DNA from: a virus
Taxonomy: Duplodnaviria; Heunggongvirae; Uroviricota; Caudoviricetes
Reading direction: 5' to 3' (one strand)
DNA length: 16,819 nucleotides
Virus record (IMG/VR): IMGVR_UViG_2690316062_000004
The translations under genes were made by a program, and so were the position numbers. Positions 1-14,244 of this stretch are shown piece by piece. The notes beneath the pieces were generated by a model. That model saw only the letters and a program-made list of their open reading frames with translations, was not told the DNA's origin and ran no database searches. Each line of letters begins with the position of its first letter. Position 1 is the first letter of the stretch.

Positions 1-885
1 TTACTTTGCAATGAGATCGGGGTCAACTTCGCTAACCCGGCATCGTTTTGACCGGTTGCCCGTCTTTCTTTTTTTCACTTTCGCCAGTTCTTCCGCGGAG
101 TAATGCGACGCGACATCCAGCCGTCGAAGCCCCATTTTGATGTACTCGCTGTTGATCTCAATACCAATGAATTTTCGTCCGCTGGCGATGGCTACGGCAC
201 CGGTAGTAAAGCTACCGGCAAACGGGTCGAGAACGATATCGCCTGGGTTGGAAGAGGCGAGAATAATGCGTTTCAGTAAGGCTTCCGGTTTTTGCGTCGG
301 GTGGTTCTCATATTCATCCATTAAATAACGCACGCGCGGAAAATCCCAGACGTTACCCGGTACTTTTTGATGATTGTATGGCTGTGGAGGATTTTTGCGA
401 TAATCGATCAACGCGCGCTGCGATCCGGTTTTGGCTTCTACCAGAATAGCATCACCGTTGAATGTGTAGTTCTTTGCGTCTTTCACCATCATCAGGATGG
501 GTTCGTACATGGAGCCGTAGTGTTTTTTCGCCTGTACTCCAGAACTGTCATATGACCAGACGATGCGACTTTTGATGGTAAAAAGCTTGCGGCACTGGAG
601 ATCGATAAAGGGCATGTTTTCCGTACTGTTCATAATGTACATGCTGCCCTGCTTTTTCAGAACGCGGTGGCACTCTGCAATCACTTCAAACAGCCAGTCG
701 ATAAACAGATCTTCTTTCCAGGCTTCGATCAGACCATCAAAATTTTTACCGATGTTATACGGTGGGTCGGCAAAGATCAGATCGACGCTTTCAGTAGGTA
801 GCTTTTTAAGTTCGGCAAGGGCATCACCGTGAATAATGGTCTTAGCTTCATTACCAAACCGGGTCGGTTCACATCCTGTTCTCAT
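1..885 (-). CDS. yhdJ: DNA adenine (N6) methyltransferase, YhdJ-like
   Basis: Translation carries the N6-MTase motif IV DPPY (FADPPYNIG) and a C-terminal motif I-like DPFAGSFTTG, and matches my recollection of E. coli YhdJ along its length. Likely ATG at 885 (GGGAG RBS upstream on the minus strand); the ORF track's 891 would be a GTG start. Confidence 0.85.
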   Translation of the reverse strand: MRTGCEPTRFGNEAKTIIHGDALAELKKLPTESVDLIFADPPYNIGKNFDGLIEAWKEDLFIDWLFEVIAECHRVLKKQGSMYIMNSTENMPFIDLQCRKLFTIKSRIVWSYDSSGVQAKKHYGSMYEPILMMVKDAKNYTFNGDAILVEAKTGSQRALIDYRKNPPQPYNHQKVPGNVWDFPRVRYLMDEYENHPTQKPEALLKRIILASSNPGDIVLDPFAGSFTTGAVAIASGRKFIGIEINSEYIKMGLRRLDVASHYSAEELAKVKKRKTGNRSKRCRVSEVDPDLIAK

Positions 886-908
886 GGTCACTCCCTTTGT
901 GACACCTA

Positions 909-1155: not shown

Positions 1156-2376
1156 ATGGCTGGCGAACTTAACAAACTGAGCGACAGGAAGTTAAAGGGA
1201 TTACATGGTATCCCGGCCAGTAAGATTGAGTTCTATGCTGATGGTGCCGGGCTGAGCGCCAAGGTAACTAAAGCTGGTGGTATTAGCTGGGTGTTTACTT
1301 ACCGACTTGACGGGCAGAAGCTGCATCGTCTGACTCTGGGACGATACCCGGATATGAGCCTCAAAGAAGCCCGTTCATCGCGTGATAAATGCCGCCAGTG
1401 GCTGGCCTCAGGTAAAGATCCAAAGCACCAGTTGGCGTTGACTACTCAGGAAACCCTTAAACCGGTCACTGTTAAGGAAGCTATAGAATACTGGATACGC
1501 GAATATGCAGAAGAGAACCGCGCGAATGTTGAACGGCACAAAGCGGAGCTGCGAAAACACATTTATCCTTATATAGGGAAAATGGCGCTCGCTGACTGTG
1601 AAACACGATACTGGCTTGACTGCTTTGACAGGATGAAAAAGAAAACTCCAGTCGCCGCAGGTTATGTGTTCCAGATGTGCAAACAAGCCCTGAAATTCTG
1701 CCGGGTTCGTCGCTATGCTGTGAGTACCGCGCTTGAAGATTTAACAATTCCAGATGTCGGTAAAAAACAGGCAAAAAAAGACCGGGTATTAAACGATAAA
1801 GAGGCTGGCGATTTATGGGCTGCCATTTCCTCTGGCACTTGCTTCATGCCTTACTACACCAGGCTACTGACAATCTTAATAGTGTTTGGGTGCCGAACGC
1901 AGGAGGCCAGGCTATCAGAGTGGAGTGAATGGGATATGGATGCCTGGGTCTGGACAGTTCCCAAAGAGCACAGCAAGGGTGGCGAGAAGATTGTAAGACC
2001 TGTGCCGGATGCCATGCGCAAATTCATTGAAATACTGCATGATGAAACGAAACGATCCGGCCTTTTGCTTGGGTCGGTTAAAGGCAGTGAAGCGGTAAGT
2101 CAGTGGGGCCGCGGCGTTTATAAAAAGCTAGGGCATTCTGAACCATGGACACTGCACGATCTAAGACGAACTTTAGCAACGCATATGAATAATATGGGTA
2201 TAGCACCACACGTTGTCGAACAGTTGCTGGGGCACTCAATGCCGGGAGTCATGGCGATTTATAACCGTAGTCTGTACTTGCCTGAGAAACTGGATGCGTT
2301 GAATAAATGGTATGACAGACTTGATATTTTATCAGGTGGATTCACTAACATTGTTTTGTTGAATAAGGCTGAATAA
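1156..2376 (+). CDS. int: Tyrosine recombinase / phage integrase, P4 family
   Basis: 406 aa with an N-terminal arm-binding-type region, then catalytic-core signatures (R in GCRTQEA, HDLRRT, LLGH, and the tyrosine in AIYNRS). Confidence 0.9.
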   Translation: MAGELNKLSDRKLKGLHGIPASKIEFYADGAGLSAKVTKAGGISWVFTYRLDGQKLHRLTLGRYPDMSLKEARSSRDKCRQWLASGKDPKHQLALTTQETLKPVTVKEAIEYWIREYAEENRANVERHKAELRKHIYPYIGKMALADCETRYWLDCFDRMKKKTPVAAGYVFQMCKQALKFCRVRRYAVSTALEDLTIPDVGKKQAKKDRVLNDKEAGDLWAAISSGTCFMPYYTRLLTILIVFGCRTQEARLSEWSEWDMDAWVWTVPKEHSKGGEKIVRPVPDAMRKFIEILHDETKRSGLLLGSVKGSEAVSQWGRGVYKKLGHSEPWTLHDLRRTLATHMNNMGIAPHVVEQLLGHSMPGVMAIYNRSLYLPEKLDALNKWYDRLDILSGGFTNIVLLNKAE

Positions 2377-3026
2377 TGACTAGTTTTCTAAAATTGGGTA
2401 TTTTCGAGCGAGAAGCCAAAGCCCCGGAGCTAAATATTAAACAACTTGCACTACTTATGTGTGGGGTAGATCCGACAGTTAAAACTGCTGATATCCCTGA
2501 AGCGAAAGTTGAAGCTTACAATATATACTATCGACAACTGAGTAGATGGTTATCAGCATCTAAATTATTTCGAGGTGGAAACTCAACAGCCTATCCCGCA
2601 GACTATATGTTTGCTCTGGCATATCCTCTTATTGATGAAGATATTACACCACAACCCATAAAGGACAGATGCCTTGCGGCGGTGGCTATAATTGCTAATC
2701 AAAACAAAGGAAAAGAGCATCTTTATGCTATGGGAGGGGATGAGCTTTTACAGGTCGGAATTGCATTGAAAAGCAGCAAACGCGGCTTGCATCGTAAAGA
2801 AGATGAAAAGGAATATAATGATAAATTAATGGGGATGCTGGTCAAGCTTATAGCACATAAGATAGGCCATTCGTTTGGCACCTCTAAAAAACCAAGCATC
2901 TCGGCTATTTTAAACGAACTATATAAATTAGCTGATGAGGAAGGTATATCTAAAACTGGATTATCTAAATCAGCAATATATGAGAAAATTCGAAAGGCAT
3001 TAAATTCGATTTATTATACGGAATGA
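2376..3026 (+). CDS. Hypothetical protein (216 aa), AT-rich, int-coupled cargo gene
   Basis: ATG overlaps the int stop (TAATG at 2374..2378). The gene is visibly AT-rich compared with the neighbouring genes. I recognise no family motif. Confidence 0.6.
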   Translation: MTSFLKLGIFEREAKAPELNIKQLALLMCGVDPTVKTADIPEAKVEAYNIYYRQLSRWLSASKLFRGGNSTAYPADYMFALAYPLIDEDITPQPIKDRCLAAVAIIANQNKGKEHLYAMGGDELLQVGIALKSSKRGLHRKEDEKEYNDKLMGMLVKLIAHKIGHSFGTSKKPSISAILNELYKLADEEGISKTGLSKSAIYEKIRKALNSIYYTE

Positions 3027-3160
3027 ATATTATTTTGCAGTGTTAGTAGGTATTATTTATATTTCATGTGAAAATACTAATTAATTATATTTGTTGGAGC
3101 TTTTGGCGATTCTATGATCGCCAAGGAGATTCAATTGTTATATTTGATGTGTATTACCGT

Positions 3161-3270
3161 TACATTCAACAGCATTCAACAGCATTCAACAGCATTCAAC
3201 AGCATTCAACGACACGTAATGACACGTTATGACACGTAACGGCACCCGACAGCACCTAACAATACCTAGC
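3161..3270. repeat. Eleven 10-bp phased direct repeats (five AGCATTCAAC-type, then degenerate GACACGTAAT-type units)
   Basis: Read directly: tACATTCAAC, AGCATTCAAC x4, GACACGTAAT, GACACGTTAT, GACACGTAAC, GGCACCCGAC, AGCACCTAAC, AATACCTAGC, with strict 10-bp periodicity. Confidence 0.8.
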
Positions 3271-3310
3271 TCCATCCACGGTCCCTACTAGGTCATTACT
3301 TGCTAACTTT

Positions 3311-3373
3311 TTCCATCTTTGTTCATGGTTATTCATCACTGTTCATCAGCGTTCATCATTGTTCATCTTTGTT
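3311..3373. repeat. Six 10-bp phased GTTCATC-type repeats (iteron-like, one mismatch from TGTTCACC)
   Basis: ttccatcttt / gttcatggtt / attcatcact / gttcatcagc / gttcatcatt / gttcatcttt. TGTTCATC differs by one base from the TGTTCACC units clustered after the primase gene. Confidence 0.7.
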
Positions 3374-3626
3374 ATGAACAATCCAAGGTGAATCAAATCG
3401 TTAAAGAACGGTGATCTTCGGCGAGTTATTGAAATTCATGATTTTTTCTCTCGAGACAGCCGTTGAAATTACTGTGGAAACTGTTTTAAACAGGGGAGCG
3501 TTATCTTGATGGAATTTCTATCTTTCAATGGAATTGCATGTTCTTTTAAAGGATTCCAGAATCAATGGAAATTCTGGTCGTTTATCCACTAATCTCTTCG
3601 CATAACATTGAAACAGTGGAGGCAGC

Positions 3627-3911
3627 ATGCAAAATATAACCTTTACCCCGCCAAATCCTGAACAGCGCCGCACCCTTTTAGAAGAGTACGGCTTTAAGTT
3701 TGATCGCCGAATCCGTGAAGATGAATGCAGCGAGATCACCAGTCTTTCCCGTTCCAGCCGCTGGAAGATGGAGCAGCAGGGGCGCTTCCCTCCGCGCTGT
3801 CACTTTGGCCGCAATAGCTGTGCTTGGCTTCTTTCGGATGTGCTCTGGTGGGTTCGTAATCCGCCAGCAGTAGAGAACGTCAATAACCCATACAGCCGTA
3901 AATCTGCTTAA
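3627..3911 (+). CDS. alpA: AlpA-family (prophage CP4-57-type) transcriptional regulator
   Basis: 94 aa; the SLSRSSRWKMEQQGRFPPR segment is the typical AlpA/Vis-like helix-turn-helix signature. GGAGG RBS at 3619..3623 before the ATG at 3627. Confidence 0.8.
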   Translation: MQNITFTPPNPEQRRTLLEEYGFKFDRRIREDECSEITSLSRSSRWKMEQQGRFPPRCHFGRNSCAWLLSDVLWWVRNPPAVENVNNPYSRKSA

Positions 3912-3931: not shown

Positions 3932-4624
3932 ATGAAAAAGATTAATGCCCTCCACGGGCAGGGATTCGCTCACCCTGTAGCCAGCCAGCACGATATTTCA
4001 GCGAACCGTAAACAGGTTATTTCCGGTGACTGGTCGCCCATTAATCGCGGTGAATTTACGCTTGCCGATCTGGGGTTGCGCCACAACGGTAACGGGCTGG
4101 TGTGGCTGCGTTCCGGCGTGTCCGTGCATGAGGCAGACCATGATGTAGGGATAAGCGGCAAGGACAAGACCAAAGGAAGGGTTAATGGTCTTCCTTTTGA
4201 ATTTGTCGGCCAGTGGCAGGAATACCCGACTAAACGCAGCTTTGCCGTTTCAGTATCTACGGAACTACGCCGCCAGTATTACCCGGACGATGCCACTTTT
4301 GGTAAGGCGATGCGTGAGGCGGGTTATATCCCCGTGCGCACCCGTAAATTGACCGGGAAGCTGGCAAGTTACTGGCTGTATAGAGTAACGGGTAACGATA
4401 AGGGGGTATGCACAGCAGAACCCACGCCCTGCAAGGCTTCCGCGCCAGTTGTCCAGACCATATCTAAGCCTCATCCGTGGTTTAAACGTGTGGCACTCGA
4501 TGGTAAATGGCAGTACGTCTACGCAGATCACATCCGCTTTCTGACGAAAAAGCGTCATCGCGTCGATGGTGTTCGGGTTCAGGGGTATACCGCTGGCGGG
4601 CTGAAAGTGGAGGCTATTGTATGA
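3932..4624 (+). CDS. Hypothetical protein (230 aa), backbone gene of unknown function
   Basis: Long ORF with backbone-like GC content directly after alpA. No motif recognised. Confidence 0.55.
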
Positions 4625-4734
4625 CAGGCAAAACAAAGGCGGCCATGCCGGGCCGCCAGTGCAATACCGCTTTACAGAAACATCGCCAGATTACCAGGCT
4701 TGCCGCTGGTGGTCAAACCTTGAGCCGACGAAAT

Positions 4735-4772
4735 CCGTACGCACAAATTAACCGCGTACGTTTAACGTACGG
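4735..4772. promoter_or_regulatory. CGTACG-based palindrome cluster, possible operator
   Basis: Perfect 8+1+8 inverted repeat CGTACGTT-t-AACGTACG at 4755..4771, plus a further CCGTACG half-site at 4735..4741. Confidence 0.3.
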
Positions 4773-4875
4773 AGATCGAGACAAAGGCGAACAGTATTCG
4801 GGTTCATGGCAAAACAACGTTAAACGTGGTTTAGAGGCTCCGACGAAAAACGTAGAGAGCTGCGAAGATAACCAA

Positions 4876-4945
4876 CCCTCTTTAAGAGGGGAGCCTCTGC
4901 ACAACTCATTAATAGTTGCGCAAAACAGACCCTTTTTAAGAGGGG
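4876..4945. repeat. Two copies of a 16-bp palindromic unit, CCCTCTTTAAGAGGGG and CCCTTTTTAAGAGGGG
   Basis: 15 of 16 positions identical at 4876..4891 and 4930..4945; each unit is a (near-)perfect inverted repeat. They lie just 3' of the minus-strand small gene. Confidence 0.5.
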
Positions 4946-4976
4946 CAGTCCACAGCATTACGGGGAGTAACCCTGT

Positions 4977-5150
4977 TCAGCCTTTTGGCTCGATGCCGCG
5001 CTTATCAAGTTCACGGCGCAAAAGGCGTTTTATCCATCCCGACTTATTATCGTCACCGTCTTCTTTCATCGCTAAAGCGAGCCGCTCTGACAGTTCTTTA
5101 TCGAGTCTGAGCTGCACAACATGGCGCTCTTTATTTTCGCTTGTTGACAT
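4977..5150 (-). CDS. Small ribbon-helix-helix-like DNA-binding protein (57 aa), candidate repressor
   Basis: Internal ATG at 5150 preceded on the minus strand by GGAG. The peptide [57 protein letters not shown] has the strand-helix-helix pattern of Arc/CopG-type proteins. The 38-aa proline-rich extension in the ORF track (start 5264) looks non-coding. Confidence 0.45.
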
Positions 5151-5192
5151 TGTCAACTCCTGTGGTCTAGTCTGTAGTGGAGTTGACAATGT
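5147..5192. promoter_or_regulatory. Perfect 14-bp inverted repeat with 18-bp spacer, covering the RBS and start codon of the RHH gene
   Basis: ACATTGTCAACTCC (5147..5160) and GGAGTTGACAATGT (5179..5192) are exact reverse complements. TTGACA hexamers occur at 5144..5149 and 5183..5188. Confidence 0.6.
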
Positions 5193-5289
5193 ACTACATT
5201 GCATGACTTTTAGTAAAGCAAAGCCCGGCAGTGGTGGAACACTAACCGGGCCTCTAACCACCACCGTTAGCGAAAGTAACGAGGCAGCT

Positions 5290-5481
5290 ATGAAAGATCA
5301 TATCACACACCCGCAAGGGCGGAAGTCCTACATCTGGCGTTTTCTTGCACTGAGCGCCATCGGTCGCAACGTCATTCACATCACAGCTAACACTGAGCGC
5401 GAAGCCCGTGAGCAATCACCGGCTGGCTGCGTGATGGTATGCGCTGGCCGTCTACCAGTTCAGGAGGTTCGCTATGCGTGA
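5290..5481 (+). CDS. Hypothetical small protein (63 aa), first gene of the replication operon
   Basis: ATG at 5290 with GAGG five nt upstream; stop overlaps the next ATG (ATGCGTGA). It is the only plausible part of the 324-aa track ORF. Confidence 0.35.
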
Positions 5482-5668
5482 GCCAATCTGTCTGGAGCAG
5501 GCCGAATATAAATCAGCGCTGGCTTCATCACTTTACGAAACCATCCTGGAAAAAGCCTCTGCTGAATGTTCAGAAACGCTGCTGAATCTGATTTCTATTG
5601 CGTGTGATTTTAATCAGGAAATTCACCGGGCATTAATCGCCGAGCTGCACATGGGAGAGACAAAGTGA
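5474..5668 (+). CDS. Hypothetical small protein (64 aa)
   Basis: Strong AGGAGG RBS at 5463..5468 before the ATG at 5474. Confidence 0.5.
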
Positions 5669-5880
5669 GACAGGTTCCTTTTGAAGTCCTGATGCACGCT
5701 GAAAATGCCCTTTCAGAAAGTGAGTGCGCAATGTCTGTGCTGAGCATGTGGATTGACAGCATTCCCGACGGTGAAGAACACCGTGAGGAAGCGTGCCGTG
5801 TCGGAGCAATTATGTCTCTGCTGCACAAATCTATCGGCGAGCTGGTGAAGGCGCGGGAGGCTTACAGTGCGAAATCCTGA
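5665..5880 (+). CDS. Hypothetical small protein (71 aa)
   Basis: GTG start overlapping the upstream stop (GTGA), with GGGAGAG RBS upstream. Confidence 0.45.
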   Translation: MRQVPFEVLMHAENALSESECAMSVLSMWIDSIPDGEEHREEACRVGAIMSLLHKSIGELVKAREAYSAKS

Positions 5881-6058
5881 AATCAACGATAGCTGGAAGG
5901 ATAAGCGCGGCGAACTGGTCACGGTGAAAGATAACGCATTTAACCGGGTAACGTTTGTGCGTGATGGTTACGATTTTCCGTGCATCTTTCCGCTGGAAAG
6001 GTTCGTTAAAGAGTTCACTTTCGTTAGCTGGGGGCTGAAAGATGAAAAACGCGCCTAA
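5867..6058 (+). CDS. Hypothetical small protein (63 aa)
   Basis: GTG start with GGGAGG RBS at 5855..5860; the 3' end overlaps the primase start. Confidence 0.45.
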   Translation: MRNPEINDSWKDKRGELVTVKDNAFNRVTFVRDGYDFPCIFPLERFVKEFTFVSWGLKDEKRA

Positions 6059-7811
6059 TGTGAAAACCCTCCCGCGCGACAAAATGGAGGAGGCCATCAT
6101 CTTTGCTGGAACGGGAGCATGGAAAGCCGCTCAGGATTACCAGAAAGGCAAGGGCGAGCATGGAGACGATGTTCCACCTGTGGTTCTGGATCACACCCAA
6201 CTGGCGGAATTGCCACACCTGCGCATTGTTGATAAAGGCCGTCGGTTTGCTCGTGTCTGTCAGGCCGGACTTATCGAGCAAAACCAAATCAGCATGATTG
6301 CAAATAAGCTGTGTGAGGCTGGCGTTACCAATGCTGAGTTTATCAACGAAAAAGGTGAGAAAGAGGACTGGACGCCATTAATGAAGCGTTTGGAAGACGA
6401 GCCCCTAATGGTGACTACGAGGGGTAGTGCTACGCCAGCGCTTAACCAGATGGGAGCCAGCCAGCGCGGGGAGGTTCTGCTTGCTCATTACGATGGCAAT
6501 CTGGCGATCCATGCTGATTCTGACACGGTTCATCATTACAACGGCGTGGTGTGGGTTCCGCTTTCGGATAAAGAGCTACAGCGGGAAATGGCGCAAATTT
6601 TTATTGATGCCGAAGTCGCCTATTCGCAGAACGCGATTAAATCCGCTGTCGATACAATGAAGCTGGGTCTGCCAGTGATGGGTAATACAGCCCGAAATCT
6701 TATTGGTTTCAGCAACGGGGTTTTTGATACCCGGTTAGGCCAATTTCGACCGCATGATAAAAAGGACTGGCTTATCGTTGCGAGCGAATTGCCATTCAGC
6801 GAACCAGCAGAAGGAGAGACTCTGGCAACCCATGCGCCGAACTTCTGGAAATGGCTCCGCCGCTCAGTGGCGGATAATGACCGAAAAGCAGACCGCGTAC
6901 TGTCTGCGCTGTTTATGGTGCTGGCGAACCGGTACGACTGGCAGCTGTTTCTTGAGGTAACGGGGCCGGGCGGAAGTGGTAAAAGTGTTATGGCTGAGAT
7001 CTGCACGATGCTGGCGGGCAAGGCCAACACCGTATCAGCGAGCATGGCGGCGCTGGAGAACCCAAGGGAAAGGGCGCTGGTAGTGGGCTATTCGCTGATT
7101 ATCATGCCGGATATGACCCGGTACGCTGGCGACGGCGCAGGGATTAAAGCTATCACTGGCGGGGATAAGGTAGCCATTGACCCTAAACACAAAGCGCCAT
7201 ATTCAACCCGTATTCCAGCGGTGGTGCTTGCCGTCAATAACAATGCCATGTCGTTCAGCGACAGAAGCGGGGGGGTTTCCAGACGGCGGGTGATTTTCAA
7301 CTTCTCCGAAGTGGTACCGGAAAACGAACGCGATCCTATGCTGGCCGAGAAGATTGAAGGTGAGCTGGCTGTAATCATTCGCCACCTGCTCACTCGCTTT
7401 TCCAGGCAGGACGAAGCCAAACAGCTTTTGCATGAGCAGCAGAAATCAGAAGAAGCGCTGGCCATCAAACGTGAAGGGGATTCACTGGTGGACTTTTGCG
7501 GCTACCTGATGGCTTCGGTGGTTTGTGATGGAATGCTGATTGGCAATGCCGAGATCGTGCCATTCAGCCCGCGCCGTTATCTGTATCACGCTTATCTGGC
7601 TTATATGCGGGCTAATGGTCTGAGCAAGCCGGTATCGCTGATGAGGTTCGGTACGGATATGCCAGGCGCAATGGCTGAATATGGCAAGGAGTACCAGAAG
7701 CGCAAAACAAAACATGGCATAAGGTCAAACGTCACGCTTCACGACGACTCAGAAGACTGGATGCCTATGTGGAATGATACATCTCATAACAGTGGAGAAA
7801 ATCAAAAGTAA
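6042..7811 (+). CDS. P4-family primase/replicative helicase (alpha-like, D5/SF3 NTPase)
   Basis: 589 aa; Walker A GPGGSGKS with downstream Walker B-like acidic stretch (LIIMPDMT), the usual layout of phage/plasmid primase P4-family C-terminal domains. Followed immediately by an iteron cluster. Confidence 0.85.
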   Translation: MKNAPNVKTLPRDKMEEAIIFAGTGAWKAAQDYQKGKGEHGDDVPPVVLDHTQLAELPHLRIVDKGRRFARVCQAGLIEQNQISMIANKLCEAGVTNAEFINEKGEKEDWTPLMKRLEDEPLMVTTRGSATPALNQMGASQRGEVLLAHYDGNLAIHADSDTVHHYNGVVWVPLSDKELQREMAQIFIDAEVAYSQNAIKSAVDTMKLGLPVMGNTARNLIGFSNGVFDTRLGQFRPHDKKDWLIVASELPFSEPAEGETLATHAPNFWKWLRRSVADNDRKADRVLSALFMVLANRYDWQLFLEVTGPGGSGKSVMAEICTMLAGKANTVSASMAALENPRERALVVGYSLIIMPDMTRYAGDGAGIKAITGGDKVAIDPKHKAPYSTRIPAVVLAVNNNAMSFSDRSGGVSRRRVIFNFSEVVPENERDPMLAEKIEGELAVIIRHLLTRFSRQDEAKQLLHEQQKSEEALAIKREGDSLVDFCGYLMASVVCDGMLIGNAEIVPFSPRRYLYHAYLAYMRANGLSKPVSLMRFGTDMPGAMAEYGKEYQKRKTKHGIRSNVTLHDDSEDWMPMWNDTSHNSGENQK

Positions 7812-7819
7812 TGGGAAAA

Positions 7820-8049
7820 GTGTTCACCACTATTCACCGTGGATAAAATCGTCTATTTAACAGATAGTTAAGGGGTGAACACTTTTTATTGAAGTGTTCA
7901 CCAAGTATTCACCTGTTCACCTTTAAAGGGTTTTTCTTTTAAAAGGTGAAGGGTTAGGGTGAATACTAGTGAATACTTAAAATTATAGTCTTCACCCTGT
8001 AACCCAATGAATTTAAATAGGAAAAATGCAAAGGTGAACAGGTGAACAC
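7820..8049. repeat. Iteron cluster (TGTTCACC / TATTCACC / CTTCACC and complements), putative replication origin (ori/crr)
   Basis: At least eleven copies in both orientations, e.g. GTGTTCACC 7820..7828, TATTCACC 7831..7838, GGTGAACAC 7874..7882, GTGTTCACC 7895..7903, TGTTCACC 7914..7921, GGTGAATAC 7959..7967, GGTGAACAGGTGAACAC 8033..8049, with an AT-rich tract at 7921..7945. Confidence 0.65.
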
Positions 8050-8450: not shown

Positions 8451-9296
8451 ATGCGAACTAACGATAATTTACAGATGATCAATAAACATCTGGAAGGAGA
8501 GTTTGAACGGCAATTGTTTGACTCTGCGATCTACAATCTTTTAGATGTAAATAATCAACTTCGCTTCAGTAATTATGCCTATGCACTTAGAGAACTATTT
8601 TTACACGTCATAAAACGCATGGCACCTGATAAAAATGTTCAGTCATGTGATTGGTTCCCTGGCTTGAATGAAAGAGAGCAGGTCTCAAGAAAAGACTCTT
8701 ACAAATATATAATCCAGGGTGGGTTAAGTGATGAATATGTCAGGGAAGAGCTTGATGTAAATGTTGCTGGGGTTTTTCCGAGGTTACGTGACGCATTCAA
8801 TTCATTAAATAAATTTACTCACATCAGCGAAAATATTTTCCCAATTAATGATGATGCTGGCCTCCAAATGGTCGGAGAGGTTGAAGGCTGTATCAGCGCT
8901 CTTTTCACCAAGCTTGATGAGTGTCATAAGGAGATAATTAATAAGCTATATGAAGCCGTTAGTGAGGCCGCGATTCATAGTTCGATAACTGAAACTGTAA
9001 CATCAATTGATATTTTATCGACACACAGTTCGGTTGATGAAGTGTATGTTGATGATGTTAAAATAGTAGAAATAAATGATACTGAAATAGTTTTCTCTGT
9101 TATTGGTTCTGTAGGTGTCGGGTTGCAATGGGGATCTAATTCCGATTTGCGAAATGATATTGGTGCTGTAGGTAGTGAGACATTCCCATTTACCTGCGAG
9201 GTGAGAAGTCCAGTGTATGCCCCTGAAAGTTTAGAGTGTGATGAAGGGGCATTCCATGCAGATACTTCAAGCTGGTGGGAAGGGTATTACGACTAA
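8451..9296 (+). CDS. Hypothetical protein (281 aa), second gene of the AT-rich cargo cassette
   Basis: ATG 24 nt after the upstream stop; AT-rich; followed by an intrinsic terminator. Contains an R-x4-H stretch (RELFLH), which is only weak evidence for any fold. Confidence 0.6.
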   Translation: MRTNDNLQMINKHLEGEFERQLFDSAIYNLLDVNNQLRFSNYAYALRELFLHVIKRMAPDKNVQSCDWFPGLNEREQVSRKDSYKYIIQGGLSDEYVREELDVNVAGVFPRLRDAFNSLNKFTHISENIFPINDDAGLQMVGEVEGCISALFTKLDECHKEIINKLYEAVSEAAIHSSITETVTSIDILSTHSSVDEVYVDDVKIVEINDTEIVFSVIGSVGVGLQWGSNSDLRNDIGAVGSETFPFTCEVRSPVYAPESLECDEGAFHADTSSWWEGYYD

Positions 9297-9333
9297 CAAG
9301 TGTAAATTATTTGTCCTCGCGCTTATTAGTGCT

Positions 9334-9360
9334 TAGCCCGATTAAATTCGGGCTTTTCTT
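9334..9360 (+). terminator. Intrinsic terminator after the cargo cassette
   Basis: Stem AGCCCGA (9334..9340), loop TTAAAT, stem TCGGGCT (9347..9353), then TTTCTTT. Confidence 0.6.
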
Positions 9361-9528
9361 TATTATTTTCATGTATATGTTGAGAAGTGGCACTCAGACG
9401 TGAGCCGCCACTGGCCGTTAAGTCAAGCTGTAGCGAGTACAGCCTGCGAGAGGCAGAAAAAGATTTAACGGCCTCCCCCCTAAGCGCTGGTTTCACGTCT
9501 TAACATTAATTGTTACGGAAACCACTCC

Positions 9529-10695
9529 ATGAAGAAACTACTCGAATTACGCCAGCAGAAAGCCGCACTCAAAACACAGATGCGTTCCATGCTGGACAAA
9601 GCCGACACCGAAAAGCGCAGCCTGAACGAAGAAGAGGGCAAAAAGTTCGATGAACTCCGCGCCCAGGCTGATGCGCTTGAAGTTGAAATCACCCGTCTAG
9701 AAGCCGTCGCCGACGATCAGCGCAATCTGCCTGGTACTTCCGTTGAAGGTGAGCCAGTAAGCAACGACGAGCTGCGCCACTACATCATGACAGGTGATAC
9801 CCGTTCTCTCTCCACGCTGGTGCAGGCTGATGGCGGCTATACCGTTATCCCTGAGCTGGACAAAGAGATTATGCGCCAGTTGCAGGATGATAGCGTGATG
9901 CGCTCCATCGCAACGGTGAAGACCACCAAAACCAACGAATACCAGAAGCTGGTATCTGTGGGCGGCACTACCGTTAATCGTGGTACCGAAGGTGAGGCAC
10001 GTACCGAAACCAGTACGCCGAAGATGGAGCGCGTTGATATCAAACTCAACCCGATCTACGCCTACCCGAAAACCACTCAGGAGATTCTCGACTTCTCCGA
10101 GGTGGATATTTTGGGCTGGCTGTCTTCTGAAATTGCCGACACCTTCACCGCGACCGAAGAAAGCGACTTTGTGAACGGCGACGGTGATAAAAAATCCAAA
10201 GGCTTCCTGTCTTACCCTCGCGCGGCCACTGCCGACAAAACCCGTCCGTTCGGTACGCTGGAGAAGATGGAAGCGGCTGACGTTTCCTCTGATGGCCTGA
10301 TCGACCTGCTGTATAAGCTGAAAGCCAAATACCGCAAAAACGCCGTATGGGTGATGAACTCCAACACCGCAGCCAAACTGCAAAAGCTGAAAAACGGCAA
10401 CGGGGATTACATCTGGCGCGATCGTCTGGTTGCCGGTTCTCCCGATACGCTGCTGGGCCGTCCTGTTCAGTATCTGGAAACCATGCCGGATGCGGAGGCA
10501 GGTAAAGCATTCCTCGCGGTAGGCGACTTCAAGCGCGGCTATTTCATCGTGGATCACACCACTGGCGTGCGTACCCGCCCTGACAACATCACCGAGCCGG
10601 GTTTCTACAAGGTGCATACCGATAAATACCTGGGCGGTGGTGTGGTGGACTCCAACGCCATCAAGGTGCTTGAGCTTTCAGGCTCCGGTTCCTGA
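9529..10695 (+). CDS. Major capsid protein, HK97 fold, with N-terminal coiled-coil scaffold-like domain
   Basis: 388 aa. The N-terminal ~100 aa are highly charged and helical (delta-domain-like), followed by a capsid-type body. Its position directly before a prohead protease and portal supports the call. Confidence 0.85.
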   Translation: MKKLLELRQQKAALKTQMRSMLDKADTEKRSLNEEEGKKFDELRAQADALEVEITRLEAVADDQRNLPGTSVEGEPVSNDELRHYIMTGDTRSLSTLVQADGGYTVIPELDKEIMRQLQDDSVMRSIATVKTTKTNEYQKLVSVGGTTVNRGTEGEARTETSTPKMERVDIKLNPIYAYPKTTQEILDFSEVDILGWLSSEIADTFTATEESDFVNGDGDKKSKGFLSYPRAATADKTRPFGTLEKMEAADVSSDGLIDLLYKLKAKYRKNAVWVMNSNTAAKLQKLKNGNGDYIWRDRLVAGSPDTLLGRPVQYLETMPDAEAGKAFLAVGDFKRGYFIVDHTTGVRTRPDNITEPGFYKVHTDKYLGGGVVDSNAIKVLELSGSGS

Positions 10696-10705
10696 TTTGA
10701 CGTTT

Positions 10706-10726
10706 AAGGGGCTGCGGCCCCTTTTT
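10706..10726 (+). terminator. Intrinsic terminator/attenuator after the capsid gene
   Basis: GGGGC-TGCG-GCCCC hairpin (10708..10721) followed by TTTTT (10722..10726). Confidence 0.55.
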
Positions 10727-10746
10727 GCCCTCTGTGGAGTCCAGTA

Positions 10747-11307
10747 ATGAAAACAATCGATTTTGAAATCCGTACCTCCGAAGTGAGCGCCAGCAACAAA
10801 AAGCTGGTGGGCTATGCCGTGCGCTGGAACAGTCTCTCTGAAATTATCTGGGACGAGTTCCGCGAGCAGTTTGCGCCGGGAGCGTTTAAAGACAGCCTGG
10901 CATCCGGTAGCGATGTGCGTGCGCTGTACGAGCATAACTATACCCAGCTGCTGGGCCGCACTAAATCCGGCACGCTGGTGCTGTCAGAAGATGATACCGG
11001 GCTGCGCTTCGAGCTGACCCCGCCGAATACCCAGCTTGGCAACGATGTGCTGGAGCTGGTGGAGCGCGGGGATATCTCCGGCATGAGCTTTGGTTTCCGG
11101 GCGCTGAAAGAGGCGTGGGATATTGCTCAGTCTCCATACCTGCGCACTGTTACCGCTGCCGAACTGCGGGAGATTACCGTTACCTCTATGCCTGCTTATC
11201 CTGAGTCTGGCGTGGAAATCGCGCACCGTTCGCTTTTCTCCCAATATCCTGAACTGCGCCGGGCTGGTGATAACCGCCGCCGCTGGGCTGAATTAGCGGG
11301 GCTCTGA
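10747..11307 (+). CDS. Prohead serine protease, HK97 family
   Basis: 186 aa, with N-terminal GYAVRW and the SFGF segment typical of HK97-type prohead proteases. Confidence 0.8.
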   Translation: MKTIDFEIRTSEVSASNKKLVGYAVRWNSLSEIIWDEFREQFAPGAFKDSLASGSDVRALYEHNYTQLLGRTKSGTLVLSEDDTGLRFELTPPNTQLGNDVLELVERGDISGMSFGFRALKEAWDIAQSPYLRTVTAAELREITVTSMPAYPESGVEIAHRSLFSQYPELRRAGDNRRRWAELAGL

Positions 11308-11308
11308 T

Positions 11309-12544
11309 ATGTGGAATATCTGGCCGTTTGGCCGTAAGTCTGAACCCTCTGAGCAGCGCAGCATGACCATTGATGAGTTTCTGGCGATGGCAGGGATTCC
11401 AAATACCGGATCAGGCGAATATGTGTCTGCGGGTACTGCGGAATCTCTGCCGGCGGTCATGAACGCCGTGTCAGTTATCAGTGAGGCGGTGGCAACAATG
11501 CCCTGCTACCTCTACCGCGTGCGCAACGATAACGGGCGTGAGGCGCGAGAATGGCTGAGCAATCACCCGGTGGATTTTCTCCTGAACGAGCAGCCGAACG
11601 ACTGCCAGACGCCTTATCAGTTTAAACGCACGATGATGCGCCATTGTCTGCTGAACGGTAACGCCTATGCGGTGATCCAGTGGGGCCGCGACGGCCAGCC
11701 GCAATCCCTGCACCCGTATGCGCCGGGGGCGGTTGTTCCTGAGCGTATCGGCCAGCATAAGTACAAATACACCGTTACAGAGCCGTTTACCGGGGCTGTG
11801 CGCACCTATCTACAGGAAGAGATTCTGCACCTGCGTTACTCCACCGATGATGGCTTTCTGGGGCGTTCGCCTATTACTACGTGCCGTGAGGCGCTGGGGT
11901 TAGGTCTGGCCCAACAGCGCCACGGTGCCAGCATTATGAAAGATGGCATGATGGCGGCGGGCGTCGTCACTACTGCTGAATGGCTCGACAGCGTGAAGGG
12001 TAAGCAGGCTCTGGACGCACTGGAGCGCTACAAAGGTGCCAGAAATGCCGGGAAAACGCCGATCCTTGAAGGTGGCATGGACTACAAGCAGCTTGGCATG
12101 AGCAATCAGGATGCCGAATGGCTGGCGTCGCGCCGGTTCTCCATTGAAGACATTGCCCGCATGTTCAATGTGTCGCCCATCTTCCTGCAGGAATACAGCA
12201 ACAGCACCTACAGCAATTTCAGCGAAGCGAGCCGCGCCTTTCTCACCATGACCATGCGCCCGTGGCTGGCGAACTTCGAGCAACAAATCAAATCTGCTTT
12301 GCTGGTGGCCTCTCCGGTTCCAGGAACCCGCTATCAGGTGGAGTTTGACTCTGCTGACCTTCTCCGTGCCACACCTACCGAGCGTTACGCCACTTATGAG
12401 CGAGGCATTAAGAACGGGATCATGAACCCGAACGAAGCCCGTGAGCGCGAGGGGATGCCGCCGCGTAAAGGTGGTGACGAATTCAGCCAGGCATGGAAGC
12501 AGGAAGTGAAGATCAGCAAAGACGGCAAGGAAGGTGACGCATGA
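11309..12544 (+). CDS. Portal protein, HK97 family
   Basis: 411 aa; size, composition and position (between protease and adaptor) fit HK97-type portals; translationally coupled to its neighbours. Confidence 0.85.
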   Translation: MWNIWPFGRKSEPSEQRSMTIDEFLAMAGIPNTGSGEYVSAGTAESLPAVMNAVSVISEAVATMPCYLYRVRNDNGREAREWLSNHPVDFLLNEQPNDCQTPYQFKRTMMRHCLLNGNAYAVIQWGRDGQPQSLHPYAPGAVVPERIGQHKYKYTVTEPFTGAVRTYLQEEILHLRYSTDDGFLGRSPITTCREALGLGLAQQRHGASIMKDGMMAAGVVTTAEWLDSVKGKQALDALERYKGARNAGKTPILEGGMDYKQLGMSNQDAEWLASRRFSIEDIARMFNVSPIFLQEYSNSTYSNFSEASRAFLTMTMRPWLANFEQQIKSALLVASPVPGTRYQVEFDSADLLRATPTERYATYERGIKNGIMNPNEAREREGMPPRKGGDEFSQAWKQEVKISKDGKEGDA

Positions 12545-12879
12545 GAGCCGGGGGGCTGAGAAGCCGCGACACTATTCGGGTATTCACTACCCACAGGGAG
12601 CCGTCCGGTCAGGTTGTTCAGGTCTGGGAAGACGGGGAAACCATATGGGCTGAGGTTAAGGGGATCAGTGGCCGAGAGTTAATGGCGTCAGGTGCCGAGG
12701 TTGCCGAAGCGACGATCCGCGTTTGGGTGCGTTTCCGCCGTGATATTACCGCAGCCAACCGTCTGAAAGTGCTTACTGGCCCGTTTGCTGGCAGCACTCT
12801 CAATATTATCGGGCCTCCTATTCCTGATTCGGAAGGTACTCGGCTGGAAATTCTCTGCAAGACAGGAACGGAAAAATGA
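12541..12879 (+). CDS. Head closure / head-tail adaptor protein
   Basis: 112 aa; ATGA overlap with the portal stop; pattern resembles small head-tail joining proteins. Confidence 0.65.
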   Translation: MRAGGLRSRDTIRVFTTHREPSGQVVQVWEDGETIWAEVKGISGRELMASGAEVAEATIRVWVRFRRDITAANRLKVLTGPFAGSTLNIIGPPIPDSEGTRLEILCKTGTEK

Positions 12880-13169
12880 CAGCAGAAATCACCCTGGATG
12901 AAGCAAAGCTGCATTGCCGTATTGATGATGATTACGAAGATACGTTGATACAGGCGTACATCGATGCGGCGCTGGAGGTTTGCCAGAAGCATATCGGCAA
13001 GCGGTTTGATAACGGGCTGGAGTTTACGCCAGCTATCAAGATTGGCTGTCTGATGTACGTATCTCAGCTGTACGAGTACCGCACGATGATTGGTGATACC
13101 GACGCCAAAGAGATACCGATGGCTGTCTCTGCGTTGTGGTCTGTCTATCGTGATGTGGGGGTGTACTGA
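12876..13169 (+). CDS. gp6-like head-tail connector protein
   Basis: 97 aa; N-terminus ITLDEAKLHCRIDDDYEDTLIQAYIDAA matches the gp6-like connector signature. Confidence 0.7.
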   Translation: MTAEITLDEAKLHCRIDDDYEDTLIQAYIDAALEVCQKHIGKRFDNGLEFTPAIKIGCLMYVSQLYEYRTMIGDTDAKEIPMAVSALWSVYRDVGVY

Positions 13170-13612
13170 TGCCGTGGCAACCACTACGCCGGTGCAATGA
13201 GCCGGGATGTAATAAACGGGTGAAGTCTGGCAAGTGTGACGAGCATAAGCGGGATGCCCGCCGACAAAGCGACAGCCGAAGAGGTACGCGAACAGAGCGT
13301 GGTTACTCCAACCGCTGGGGCGAATACCGTCGTCATTTTCTAAAAGCTAATCCGCTGTGTGTCCATTGTCTCAAGGCTGGCGTCTATGCATCGGCAACTA
13401 TCGTCGATCACATCATCCCTATCGAGGGTGAAGCTGATGTGCTGTTCTGGCCCGCCAGTAATCACCAGTCGTTATGCGCTGCCTGTCATGGACGGAAGAC
13501 AACCACAACAGACCCGGTGACGAAGCAGCAGCGTAAAGCCGGTAAGTTCCGCGAGCAGGAAGAAGCAGCACGTCATCGCACCGACTGGATCTATGAGGCA
13601 AACAATGACTGA
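13169..13612 (+). CDS. HNH endonuclease (packaging-associated)
   Basis: 147 aa with Cys clusters (CNEPGC, CVHC, CAAC) and a histidine in the DHIIPI segment; TGATG overlap with the upstream gene; sits immediately before the terminase genes. Confidence 0.8.
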   Translation: MPWQPLRRCNEPGCNKRVKSGKCDEHKRDARRQSDSRRGTRTERGYSNRWGEYRRHFLKANPLCVHCLKAGVYASATIVDHIIPIEGEADVLFWPASNHQSLCAACHGRKTTTTDPVTKQQRKAGKFREQEEAARHRTDWIYEANND

Positions 13613-13887
13613 GCAGGAACAGCAGCGGCTGATTAGTGGGCTGATAAAGCAGCGTGAGTCATGGCAACCAGCCAGACAGAGAGCGCATAAGAAGCCCGTA
13701 GCAAAGCGCATGAGCCAGCGTGACCGGGAGCTTATGGAATGCTTTCGCAACCGCTGACAGGCCGAATGGACGGGGTGGGGGAGGTTTTCAGGACAAACCC
13801 CTCTCAGCGAGGAACCACCCGCCCCCTCAAATTTTTACGCACGGTGATTTTTTTGAAAATAAAACGCGACGGAAACGAGAAATTTTT

Positions 13888-14244
13888 ATGGCAAGACCAC
13901 CCAAACCGCCAGCTTACCTTGATGAGTTAGCTGCGCAGCAGTGGAAAGCGAAGGCGAAGCAACTGGCGGAGCGCGGGGATTTGACTCCCGCCGACTGGAA
14001 CAACCTTGAGCTTTTTTGCGTCAACTATTCGATGTACCGCAAAGCCGTGGAAGACCTTGCCAGCCGTGGGTTCAGCATTGTTAACAGCCAGGGCGGTGAG
14101 AGCCGAAATCCGGCGCTGAGCGCAAAGGCCGATGCTGAAAAAATCATGATTAAAATGTCGTCGCTGCTGGGCTTTGATCCGGTAAGCCGCCGCCGGAACC
14201 CGGTGGAAACGGAGGAGGAAGACGAGCTTGACCGTCTGGAATGA
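13888..14244 (+). CDS. Terminase small subunit (P27-like)
   Basis: ATG at 13888 gives the 118-aa protein MARPPKPPAYLDELAAQQW..., typical of small terminases; the GTG at 13720 in the ORF track would add a glycine-rich, non-protein-like leader. Confidence 0.7.
   Translation: MARPPKPPAYLDELAAQQWKAKAKQLAERGDLTPADWNNLELFCVNYSMYRKAVEDLASRGFSIVNSQGGESRNPALSAKADAEKIMIKMSSLLGFDPVSRRRNPVETEEEDELDRLE

Follow-up and report, generated by a model that had tools for sequence, protein, structure and literature searches.

A hypervariable, 10-bp-phased repeat mosaic in the alpA leader of a capsid-forming phage satellite

An unsettled question about Gram-negative phage-inducible chromosomal islands (PICIs) is how alpA is kept silent and how it comes to be turned on by a helper phage. 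AlpA is the helper-induced master activator of these satellites (PMC6092414); it activates its own promoter, which helper phages also induce independently of AlpA (PMC6092414, PMC11773190), and neither an island repressor of alpA nor a helper inducer is known (PMC6092414). A structured leader that bears on this question is found in IMG/VR record IMGVR_UViG_2690316062_000004, a stretch of 16,819 nucleotides of Caudoviricetes DNA (hereafter, the window). There, a field of short tandem repeats separates alpA from orf216, a gene coupled to the integrase gene int (Table 1). An earlier note, made from the sequence alone, proposed that the field mirrors the ori-crr arrangement of P4, with an alpA-proximal regulatory array as the fallback. 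Is the field a second replication cluster or part of the alpA control region? Our analysis favours the fallback over the ori/crr view, as the field is inherited with int, orf216 and the leader and does not depend on the type of replicon. No prior description of the field was found in the searchable literature.

A phased mosaic with variable copy number

The repeats proposed between the int-coupled open reading frame (ORF) and alpA are real and amount to about 22 units of 10 bp over 3161-3380. Self-identity at a lag of 10 bp is 0.64 over this stretch; averaged over all 220-bp segments of the window, it is 0.257 (sd 0.05). Tandem Repeats Finder (TRF) reports three arrays here, all of period 10. 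Read in register from 3161, the eleven head-to-tail units that had been described are TACATTCAAC, four copies of AGCATTCAAC, GACACGTAAT, GACACGTTAT, GACACGTAAC, GGCACCCGAC, AGCACCTAAC and AATACCTAGC. The later members of this series had been taken for degenerating copies of the first; they are instead separate sub-arrays, each of which expands independently in relatives. After a 40-bp linker come the six phased GTTCATC-type units that had also been described, which read TTCCATC, GTTCATG, ATTCATC and three times GTTCATC between 3311 and 3367 and of which three are exact. The pair RTTCATC-N3-RTTCATC, with one mismatch at most, has four matches against 0.03 expected. This fourth sub-array, termed field B, is closed by two inverted units, and the last of these, GGTGAAT (3387-3393), reads ATTCACC on the complementary strand. 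The field contains three or more neighbouring direct repeats whose cores measure 6-8 bp and whose spacing is 10-11 bp, as in known operator arrays. Contrary to what had been suggested, the sites would not all lie on one face of the DNA. Given a period of 10.0 bp and a helical repeat of ~10.5 bp, only four to six neighbours would be roughly cofacial, and the 22 units would wind once around the helix.

Copy numbers were compared among 20 near-identical islands, namely the window, four annotated genomes, one packaged element and 14 IMG/VR contigs, and they vary in whole 10-bp units. Sub-array 1 (CATTCAAC units) has 2, 3, 4, 5, 6, 7, 8, 9 or 10 copies, sub-array 2 (ACACGTAAY units) has 1-6 and sub-array 3 (RRYACCYNAC units) has 2-7, the last being expanded in loci L031, L039, L044 and L046 with several AGCACCTAAC or AGTACCCAAC copies. 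Field length ranges from 188 to 268 bp in 10-bp steps and is always congruent to 8 modulo 10. Together, these copy numbers and lengths indicate that sub-arrays 1-3 behave as a hypermutable minisatellite, and the field as a whole shows the copy-number polymorphism among otherwise near-identical sequences that is typical of hypermutable repeats. Field B (RTTCRTN units) is markedly steadier than sub-arrays 1-3, with five units in 19 of the 20 relatives and seven in L044; the differences between relatives lie mostly in the spacers or in the degenerate first unit. A 54-aa ORF at 3068-3232, which spans sub-array 1, was rejected as a gene because 10-bp changes would shift its frame.

In the relatives compared, the field is always accompanied by orf216. 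Homologs of orf216 with 51-76% identity occur in Yersinia, Rahnella, Xenorhabdus, Brenneria, Pectobacterium, Proteus, Providencia, another E. coli lineage and a metagenome, and all ten orf216 lineages (51-100% identity) have the gene order int, orf216, a leader of 292-600 bp, and alpA. The leaders of the nine additional lineages measure 292-578 bp, and their islands carry primases of the alpha or the DUF927 type. TRF detects tandem arrays in the leaders of nine of the ten lineages (eight of the nine additional ones), and in the remaining lineage, L066, four GTTTCA units spaced 10 bp apart are visible as an array, which brings the count to ten of ten. Of eight island lineages lacking orf216, none has such a leader or such arrays. 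Different lineages have unrelated unit sequences, for example GCAAAATGT, TGCATAATC, CAATGAGTNT, CTATTGTCTC, ACACCTATGA and AAATATCCAC. The period, in contrast, is 9 or 10 in 14 of 16 leader arrays, compared to 156 of 577 arrays (27%) found with the same TRF settings elsewhere in 626 kb of other DNA (Fisher p ~1e-6), and the leader arrays are 3.6 times as dense as this background (3.4 versus 0.93 per kb). What is conserved is the presence of phased tandem arrays in the int-orf216-alpA leader, with their period kept and their unit sequence not. Two other groups of repeats were set aside: three copies of GTTCATCTTA in L032, an unrelated viral contig with a phage region, several repeat types and no informative neighbours, and the high-GC CCGTGTTCAT tandem repeats of L035, L036 and L041, which are unrelated to the field.

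These observations bear on whether the field has a function at all. It could be a functionless minisatellite, either the decayed remnant of an ancestral P4-type ori ahead of vis/alpA or a site prone to slippage in a long non-coding leader. The extreme copy-number polymorphism between flanks that are ~97-100% identical is consistent with this, as are the unrelated units of different lineages, the lack of any binder found and a position homologous to the ori of P4 and of the P4-like element L030. However, arrays occupy the same place in ten lineages whose orf216 has diverged to 51% identity, by which point a neutral relic would be long erased. In addition, their periods are non-random, their density exceeds the background, and field B keeps its copy number in nearly all relatives while its neighbours vary freely. 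We consider a functionless minisatellite unlikely.

The field and the replicon

The case for a replication role begins with the primase. Residues 479-575 of the window's primase match the origin-binding domain of P4 alpha (PDB 1KA8, E 2e-25), and its helicase and origin-binding portion is 51.5% identical to P4 alpha. As the earlier note had observed, the GTTCATC unit of the field is one base apart from the downstream iteron GTTCACC, and the two clusters are separated by ~4.5 kb. Spacing and spacer are shared as well, with ATTCATC-ACT-GTTCATC in the field versus GTTCACC-ACT-ATTCACC in the first ori pair, and the leader of L060 begins with an exact CGTTCACCACTATTCA. In the P4 record, ori (9086-9809) is directly upstream of the AlpA-family gene vis (orf88) and contains three head-to-tail 10-bp 'type 2' repeats (9176-9205) along with six TGTTCACC 'type 1' iterons, while crr is just 3' of alpha, ~4.8 kb from ori. 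Because the P4 record places ori upstream of vis and crr 3' of alpha, the P4 analogy is well founded in position, and the field shares this type of location, upstream of alpA with 10-bp tandem repeats alongside. Nor is the arrangement unique to P4, because iterons also lie upstream of vis in L030 (6096-6124; Erwinia rhapontici). L030 is a true P4-like element whose Vis is 56% identical to P4 Vis; its GTGTTCACC iterons share the P4 position upstream of vis, and the 330 bp 3' of its primase contain none. On these grounds, the field could be a second binding field of the P4-alpha-type primase, crr- or ori-like, that loops to the iterons and is needed for, or modulates, replication.

Comparative tests with 26 fetched loci, whose primases are 56-99% identical to that of the window, address this function. 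The region 3' of the primase is conserved in architecture, and its iteron word is lineage-specific, being GTTCACC, GTCTACC, CTCCACC/GTCCACC or GTCCGCC. In the window, the first half of this region has the layout of P4 ori, with two direct units, an AT-rich segment, one inverted unit and three direct TGTTCACC-type units, and its second half aligns with the P4 crr unit ('...aaatAGGAAAAATGCAAAGGTGAACAGGTGAACA' versus 'aaaaGAGAAAAACGAAAGGTGAACAGTGTGAACA' in P4). This indicates that the equivalents of P4 ori and crr are fused 3' of the primase in these islands. Across loci L001-L030, the iteron word covaries with a short stretch in the wing of the P4-type origin-binding domain, such as KRK-----TKHGIRSN with GTTCACC and RKQCTRGPDKGRTISN with GTCTACC. 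Judged from this covariation, the pairing is a natural specificity code of the origin-binding domain, and islands of the GTTCACC and GTCTACC types therefore appear to have genuinely different specificities.

The field does not follow this code. An identical field is paired with alpha-type/GTTCACC origins in the window, L001 and L004, and the whole field is also present in L013 (Enterobacter) and L042, where int, orf216 and alpA are 98-100% identical to those of the window but the domain and iterons are of the GTCTACC type. It is present again in L031, whose orf216 and alpA are 98% identical and whose replicase is a non-homologous DUF927 protein with TTATCCC iterons. The repeat word of the field is the same in all three settings and does not covary with replicase specificity. 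Conversely, most islands of the same GTTCACC origin type lack the field, as was seen in L007-L011, L014, L015, L017, L021 and L022; in L009, L014 and L017, AlpA is 83-94% identical and the space from int to alpA is taken up by a different ORF. In each of 28 relatives, the element's own iteron word forms one cluster, 3' of the primase, and a second, separated cluster was not found among them, two being seen only in P4. The field units also differ from the island's own iteron word at position 6, which is T in every field unit and C in 182 of 187 words from 15 GTTCACC-type origins, with T in 4 against a chance expectation of 4.35. Among other orf216 lineages, the arrays in the leaders of L061-L064 bear no relation to the ori words of their islands, and the pri-ori fragment of EcCICFT073 alone maintains a plasmid (PMC6092414). 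Given the natural swaps, the single clusters, the absences and the base at position 6, a primase-binding, crr-like role is highly improbable. Of the proposed mirror of P4 ori-crr, layout and position stand, and the function as a second primase-binding cluster is unsupported in every comparison made. The comparisons indicate that the field is independent of the replicon and is not a second replication origin, which removes the misreading invited by repeats one base off the true iterons at a P4-like distance.

The swaps also document modular shuffling, in which one int/orf216/leader/alpA module is joined to differing replication modules (L013, L042, L031). In L046, the module has a different integrase (76% identical), and in L047 an IS5-type transposase takes the place of the expected primase.

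The alpA control region

If not in replication, where would the field act? Between the field and alpA, the leader contains four TGGAAT-type sites followed by a -10-like hexamer (Table 1). The arrangement of the sites is shared with L060, L061 and L062, and the Proteus island L063 has TAGAAA-type sequences at all four; in our reading, a TAnnnT hexamer follows site 4 by 17-18 bp in all five lineages. We predict that 3510-3595 is probably an activator-dependent alpA promoter, and the TGGAAT sites are probably a better candidate than the field for the target of the helper inducer or of AlpA. With the predicted promoter at 3590-3595, the field would be located at roughly -230 to -440. Sites 3 and 4 form the hairpin CCAGAAT-N8-ATTCTGG, and the single weak terminator-like hairpin in a terminator scan (3556-3577) coincides with them. 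A scan with consensus promoters returned promoter-like sites no more numerous than in shuffles. At the other end of the leader, a perfect palindrome just after orf216 lacks a T-run after it and is kept in all field-bearing relatives; it could be an operator or an RNA hairpin.

Downstream of orf216, no canonical intrinsic terminator was found, which leaves room for an RNA-level role in which the field is a C-rich, G-poor Rho loading (rut) stretch that insulates alpA by halting int-orf216 read-through. Over the 160 nt of 3161-3320, C occurs 50 times and G 20 times on the + strand, and the arrays of L064 and L065 and one array of L063 are also C-rich and G-poor in our reading. In contrast, the arrays of L061 and L067 and the other L063 array are rich in G or T on the + strand, neither exact tandem repetition nor a 10-bp period is required of a rut site, and an Rfam scan of 2900-3900 at a permissive E-value gave only chance-level matches to eukaryotic or archaeal snoRNA or miRNA. 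Insulation through Rho is thus very unlikely.

Our favoured reading, held at about even confidence, is that the field acts in cis as a phased scaffold for protein binding within the alpA control region. The field is a slippage-prone mosaic of four direct-repeat blocks with a 10-bp period, ~230-440 bp upstream of the predicted alpA promoter, within a leader co-inherited with int and orf216 in one PICI/capsid-forming PICI lineage. A small DNA-binding protein would polymerise cooperatively along sites one helical turn apart and bend or wrap the DNA, and the resulting scaffold would set either the tightness of alpA silencing or the strength of firing upon helper arrival. This reading is suggested by the conservation of the period while the unit sequence is free, by the regulatory nature of the region upstream of alpA in Gram-negative PICIs (PMC6092414, PMC11773190), by the far lower copy-number variation of field B than of sub-arrays 1-3, and by a grammar that matches the proven operator arrays of TorI and Apl.

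Two proteins are candidates for the binder. The orf216 product is one because the gene is co-inherited with the array-bearing leader, in all ten lineages with orf216 and none of the eight without it. It is an all-helical protein that is unassigned to a family and has no Pfam match; the structural model predicts a 50-residue helix and then a C-terminal helix-loop-helix with an invariant G-L-S-K-S-T-x-Y-K-K-I, and residues ~189-207 give only sub-threshold matches of the helix-turn-helix (HTH) type. AlpA, a protein of the winged-helix, excisionase/regulator type with a weak relative in PDB 8C3T (AlpA family protein), is the other, because of the analogy with excisionase/regulator systems.

Several findings weigh against the scaffold. 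No protein that binds the field was found, and near-identical AlpA proteins (83-94%) occur in L009, L014 and L017 without arrays anywhere, which counts in particular against AlpA as the binder. No field units are present near attP, where they would be expected for an excisionase-type AlpA, either at 850-1200 of the window or in the attP reconstructed for L004, and a matrix of 7-mer sharing between leader units and their own att arm in ten lineages has no diagonal enrichment. In a parallel Vis-site test, the P4 type 2 unit was not found near P4 attP, and no definitions of AlpA or Vis binding sites in PICIs or P4 were found in the literature. One sequence-specific protein would not read four differing unit sequences, and the field is at least 230 bp from the predicted promoter, not over it. 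Moreover, the 1-10 copies of sub-arrays 1-3 fit weak constraint as well as tuning. A cross-lineage motif, GTT(T)CAY, is weakly supported, as TTCA has 10/20/30-bp phasing in six of nine other lineages but shares the top rank with GTTT and AT-rich 4-mers.

A factor from outside the island could also be involved. The field could be a sensor or decoy for (a) the helper-phage inducer of alpA or (b) a host OmpR-family regulator, TorR, on field B. Induction of the alpA promoter region by a helper phage independently of AlpA (PMC6092414, PMC11773190) is compatible with the former, and lineage-specific arrays would fit different helper phages. For the latter, CTGTTCATCA, GCGTTCATCA and TTGTTCATCT of field B agree with the tor boxes CTGTTCATAT and CCGTTCATCC of E. 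coli in core, 10-bp head-to-tail arrangement and orientation, and TorI, a prophage excisionase, is known to have TorR as a partner (PMC3509656). However, the tor-box match was noticed post hoc among many known motifs, other lineages have unrelated units, and there is no evidence that the hosts Klebsiella, Enterobacter and Citrobacter use TorR here. The arrays are also far upstream of the promoter; the conserved TGGAAT sites are located at the promoter itself and are better candidates for the inducer's target. A sensor or decoy role is accordingly quite unlikely.

It is interesting to speculate that the int-orf216-leader-alpA segment is a previously undescribed control unit, in which orf216 would polymerise on hypermutable phased tracts that give an island population a range of induction thresholds or helper specificities. 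Here the orf216 product, with its coiled coil and C-terminal HTH-like motif, would be the missing island-encoded regulator, and whole-turn slippage together with lineage-specific units would provide a repeat-number rheostat on satellite induction. We regard this extension as doubtful. The observations themselves are that, in one widespread lineage, the long alpA leader combines a 10-bp-phased, hypervariable mosaic, a four-site TGGAAT cluster at a predicted activator-type promoter and a co-inherited orf216. They provide concrete DNA fragments and two candidate proteins, the orf216 product and AlpA, with which to approach alpA silencing and helper switch-on.

The island and its place among known repeat systems

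The layout of the window is that of a capsid-forming PICI (bioRxiv 10.1101/2022.09.08.507074), and its gene content identifies the element as such a satellite, adjoining yhdJ (Table 1). Near-identical islands adjoin yhdJ in E. coli and also occur in Klebsiella, Enterobacter and Citrobacter. One of them, LR881103 (L004; 16.5 kb), was deposited as the induced 'phage' vB_KppS-Ant. Its gene content indicates that LR881103.1 ('Escherichia phage vB_KppS-Ant', induced prophage) is a capsid-forming satellite and not a phage, because it is without tail genes and its 'tail length tape measure protein' ORF sits in the cargo region. The ends of this packaged form are beside terS, away from the field, and a role of the field as packaging site was rejected. 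Two further genes vary between islands. The gene with pPIWI-associated nuclease domains, possibly a defence gene, occupies a variable cargo slot, because E. coli relatives have two unrelated minus-strand genes there, and the ORF after terL differs from the L004 cargo at that position.

Table 1. Coordinates of the island genes and of the leader features in the window
Feature	Position	Strand	Remarks
yhdJ-type methylase	1-891	-	
P4-family tyrosine integrase (int)	1156-2376	+	
orf216	2376-3026	+	1-nt overlap of its start with the int stop
Non-coding leader	3027-3626		600 bp
Perfect palindrome, TTGGCGAT-N6-ATCGCCAA	3103-3124		8-bp arms; just after orf216, ~40 bp upstream of arrays
Sub-array 1, (T/A)(A/G)CATTCAAC x5	3161-3210	+	head to tail, period 10; hypervariable
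TRF array	3163-3210		period 10, 4.8 copies, 100% match
Sub-array 2, GACACGTAAY x3	3211-3240	+	period 10
TRF array	3211-3239		period 10, 2.9 copies
Sub-array 3, GGCACCCGAC, AGCACCTAAC, AATACCTAGC	3241-3270	+	type RRYACCYNAC
Linker	3271-3310		40 bp, non-periodic; lag-10 identity 0.34; conserved among relatives
Sub-array 4 (field B), six phased units	3311-3370	+	7-bp core and 3-bp spacer
TRF array	3314-3373		period 10, 6.0 copies, 76%
Two inverted units closing field B	3374-3393	-	ATGAACA 3374-3380, GGTGAAT 3387-3393
Four TGGAAT-type sites	3510, 3529, 3553 (inverted), 3566	+ + - +	span 3510-3572
TAATCT, -10-like hexamer	3590-3595		18 bp downstream of site 4, ~30 bp before alpA start codon
alpA (PF05930, E 5e-10)	3627-3911	+	first gene of rightward operon
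Several small ORFs	3932-5880	+	
D5_N/DUF5906/Pox_D5 primase-helicase	6042-7811	+	
Iteron field	7822-8048		3' of primase
Gene with pPIWI-associated nuclease domains (pP_pnuc_1 and pP_pnuc_2)	8451-9296	+	between origin and capsid gene
Capsid, protease, portal, head completion, connector, HNH, TerS, TerL	9529-15889	+	
ORF of at least 297 aa	15926-16819	-	no Pfam match; after terL, runs off right end of window

The attachment region is at 913-1142 of the window and 4851-5107 of L004. Its arm-type sites are tandem pairs of TGTATAAACA, one at 1116-1142 next to int and a partner pair on the other arm in packaged L004, and the att core adjoins a terminator-like hairpin, AAAAAAGGCGCTTCCCCATGCCGAGTAGCGCCTTTTT. 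These core-flanking pairs are unrelated to the field, which was rejected as a set of integrase arm sites. Upstream of int, the block CTGTATATTGTTCCAGTG(T/C)TTTT is kept across many lineages and is possibly Pint.

Several known systems resemble the field in part. P4 ori shares its position directly upstream of an AlpA-family gene and its combination of 10-bp tandem repeats with 8-bp units ~10 bp apart, and as with P4 ori and crr, ~4.5-5 kb separate the field from the iterons on the 3' side of a homologous primase. In contrast to P4 ori, however, the window has the two repeat types in reverse order with respect to vis/alpA, the field is without sequence similarity to the P4 type 2 unit GCTTTAAGTG, its word is not the iteron word (T versus C at position 6) and it is independent of replicase type. 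The window, unlike P4, also has its ori-like and crr-like halves together 3' of the primase. The TorR tor boxes of E. coli torCAD are likewise direct decamers with a GTTCAT core, boxes 1 and 2 being head-to-tail at a 10-bp period, and three field B units match them in eight of ten positions, a match noticed post hoc. The field differs in being part of a satellite control region rather than a respiratory operon and in having 5-7 copies plus inverted units; the resemblance may reflect a general grammar of winged-helix direct-repeat sites. With contingency loci and promoter variable-number tandem repeats, the field has in common whole-unit copy changes among near-identical sequences in a regulatory region. 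In contrast to these, its unit is 10 bp and its tract is far upstream, neither between -35 and -10 nor within an ORF, and whole-turn steps would preserve, not switch, the helical phase.

A further group comprises the operator arrays that winged-helix excisionases and regulators bind, those of TorI (KplE1), Apl (186), Cox (P2) and Xis (lambda). At KplE1 attL, TorI binds five cooperative sites with GTTCG-type cores, through which it represses PintS, and sites I3, I4 and I5 are 8 bp each and 2 nt apart (PMC2951348, PMC3509656); in MG1655, our reading of this stretch is GTTCGTCATGGTTCGCTTCAGATCGTTGAC. The Apl protein of phage 186 binds seven 6-bp direct repeats, set 10-11 bp apart, in the interval from pR to pL, and a further five operators at att. 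It requires a run of three or more neighbouring sites, and it both bends the DNA and spreads over it (PMC7498355). A related layout is seen in L026 (4575-4690), an island at the same att site, where two blocks of three 10-bp-phased GTTCGCC or GTTCGTC units lie between the att core and the arm-type sites. Both layout and core are as in the TorI sites of KplE1 attL, and this analogy suggests that the blocks may be excisionase sites of an AlpA-type protein. The field differs from the TorI/Apl/Cox/Xis arrays, which overlap a promoter or an att arm, in that it is separated by 230 bp or more from the predicted promoter downstream and attP lacks its units. In addition, it concatenates four unit types with hypervariable copy number, near-identical AlpA proteins exist without any array, and its binding is only predicted.

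The likeness lies in the grammar. As in those systems, short direct repeats of 6-8 bp follow one another head-to-tail at one-turn spacing, in blocks of 3-7, within the control region of a mobile element beside an operon-first gene of the AlpA/HTH_17 clan, here alpA. The TorI cores GTTCG, GATCG and GTCCG at a 10-bp period compare with GTTCATC in the field, and the L064 leader contains GTTCGTCATTGTTCGCC, close to GTTCGTCATGGTTCGCT of KplE1. The winged-helix regulators RdfS and BldC form filaments with little sequence consensus and weak readout (PMC11963761), and filaments of this kind would explain how a period is conserved while unit sequence runs free. Among known systems, the field is therefore best read as a phased direct-repeat array of the operator type, unusual in that it is a mosaic, hypermutable and tied to the uncharacterised orf216.

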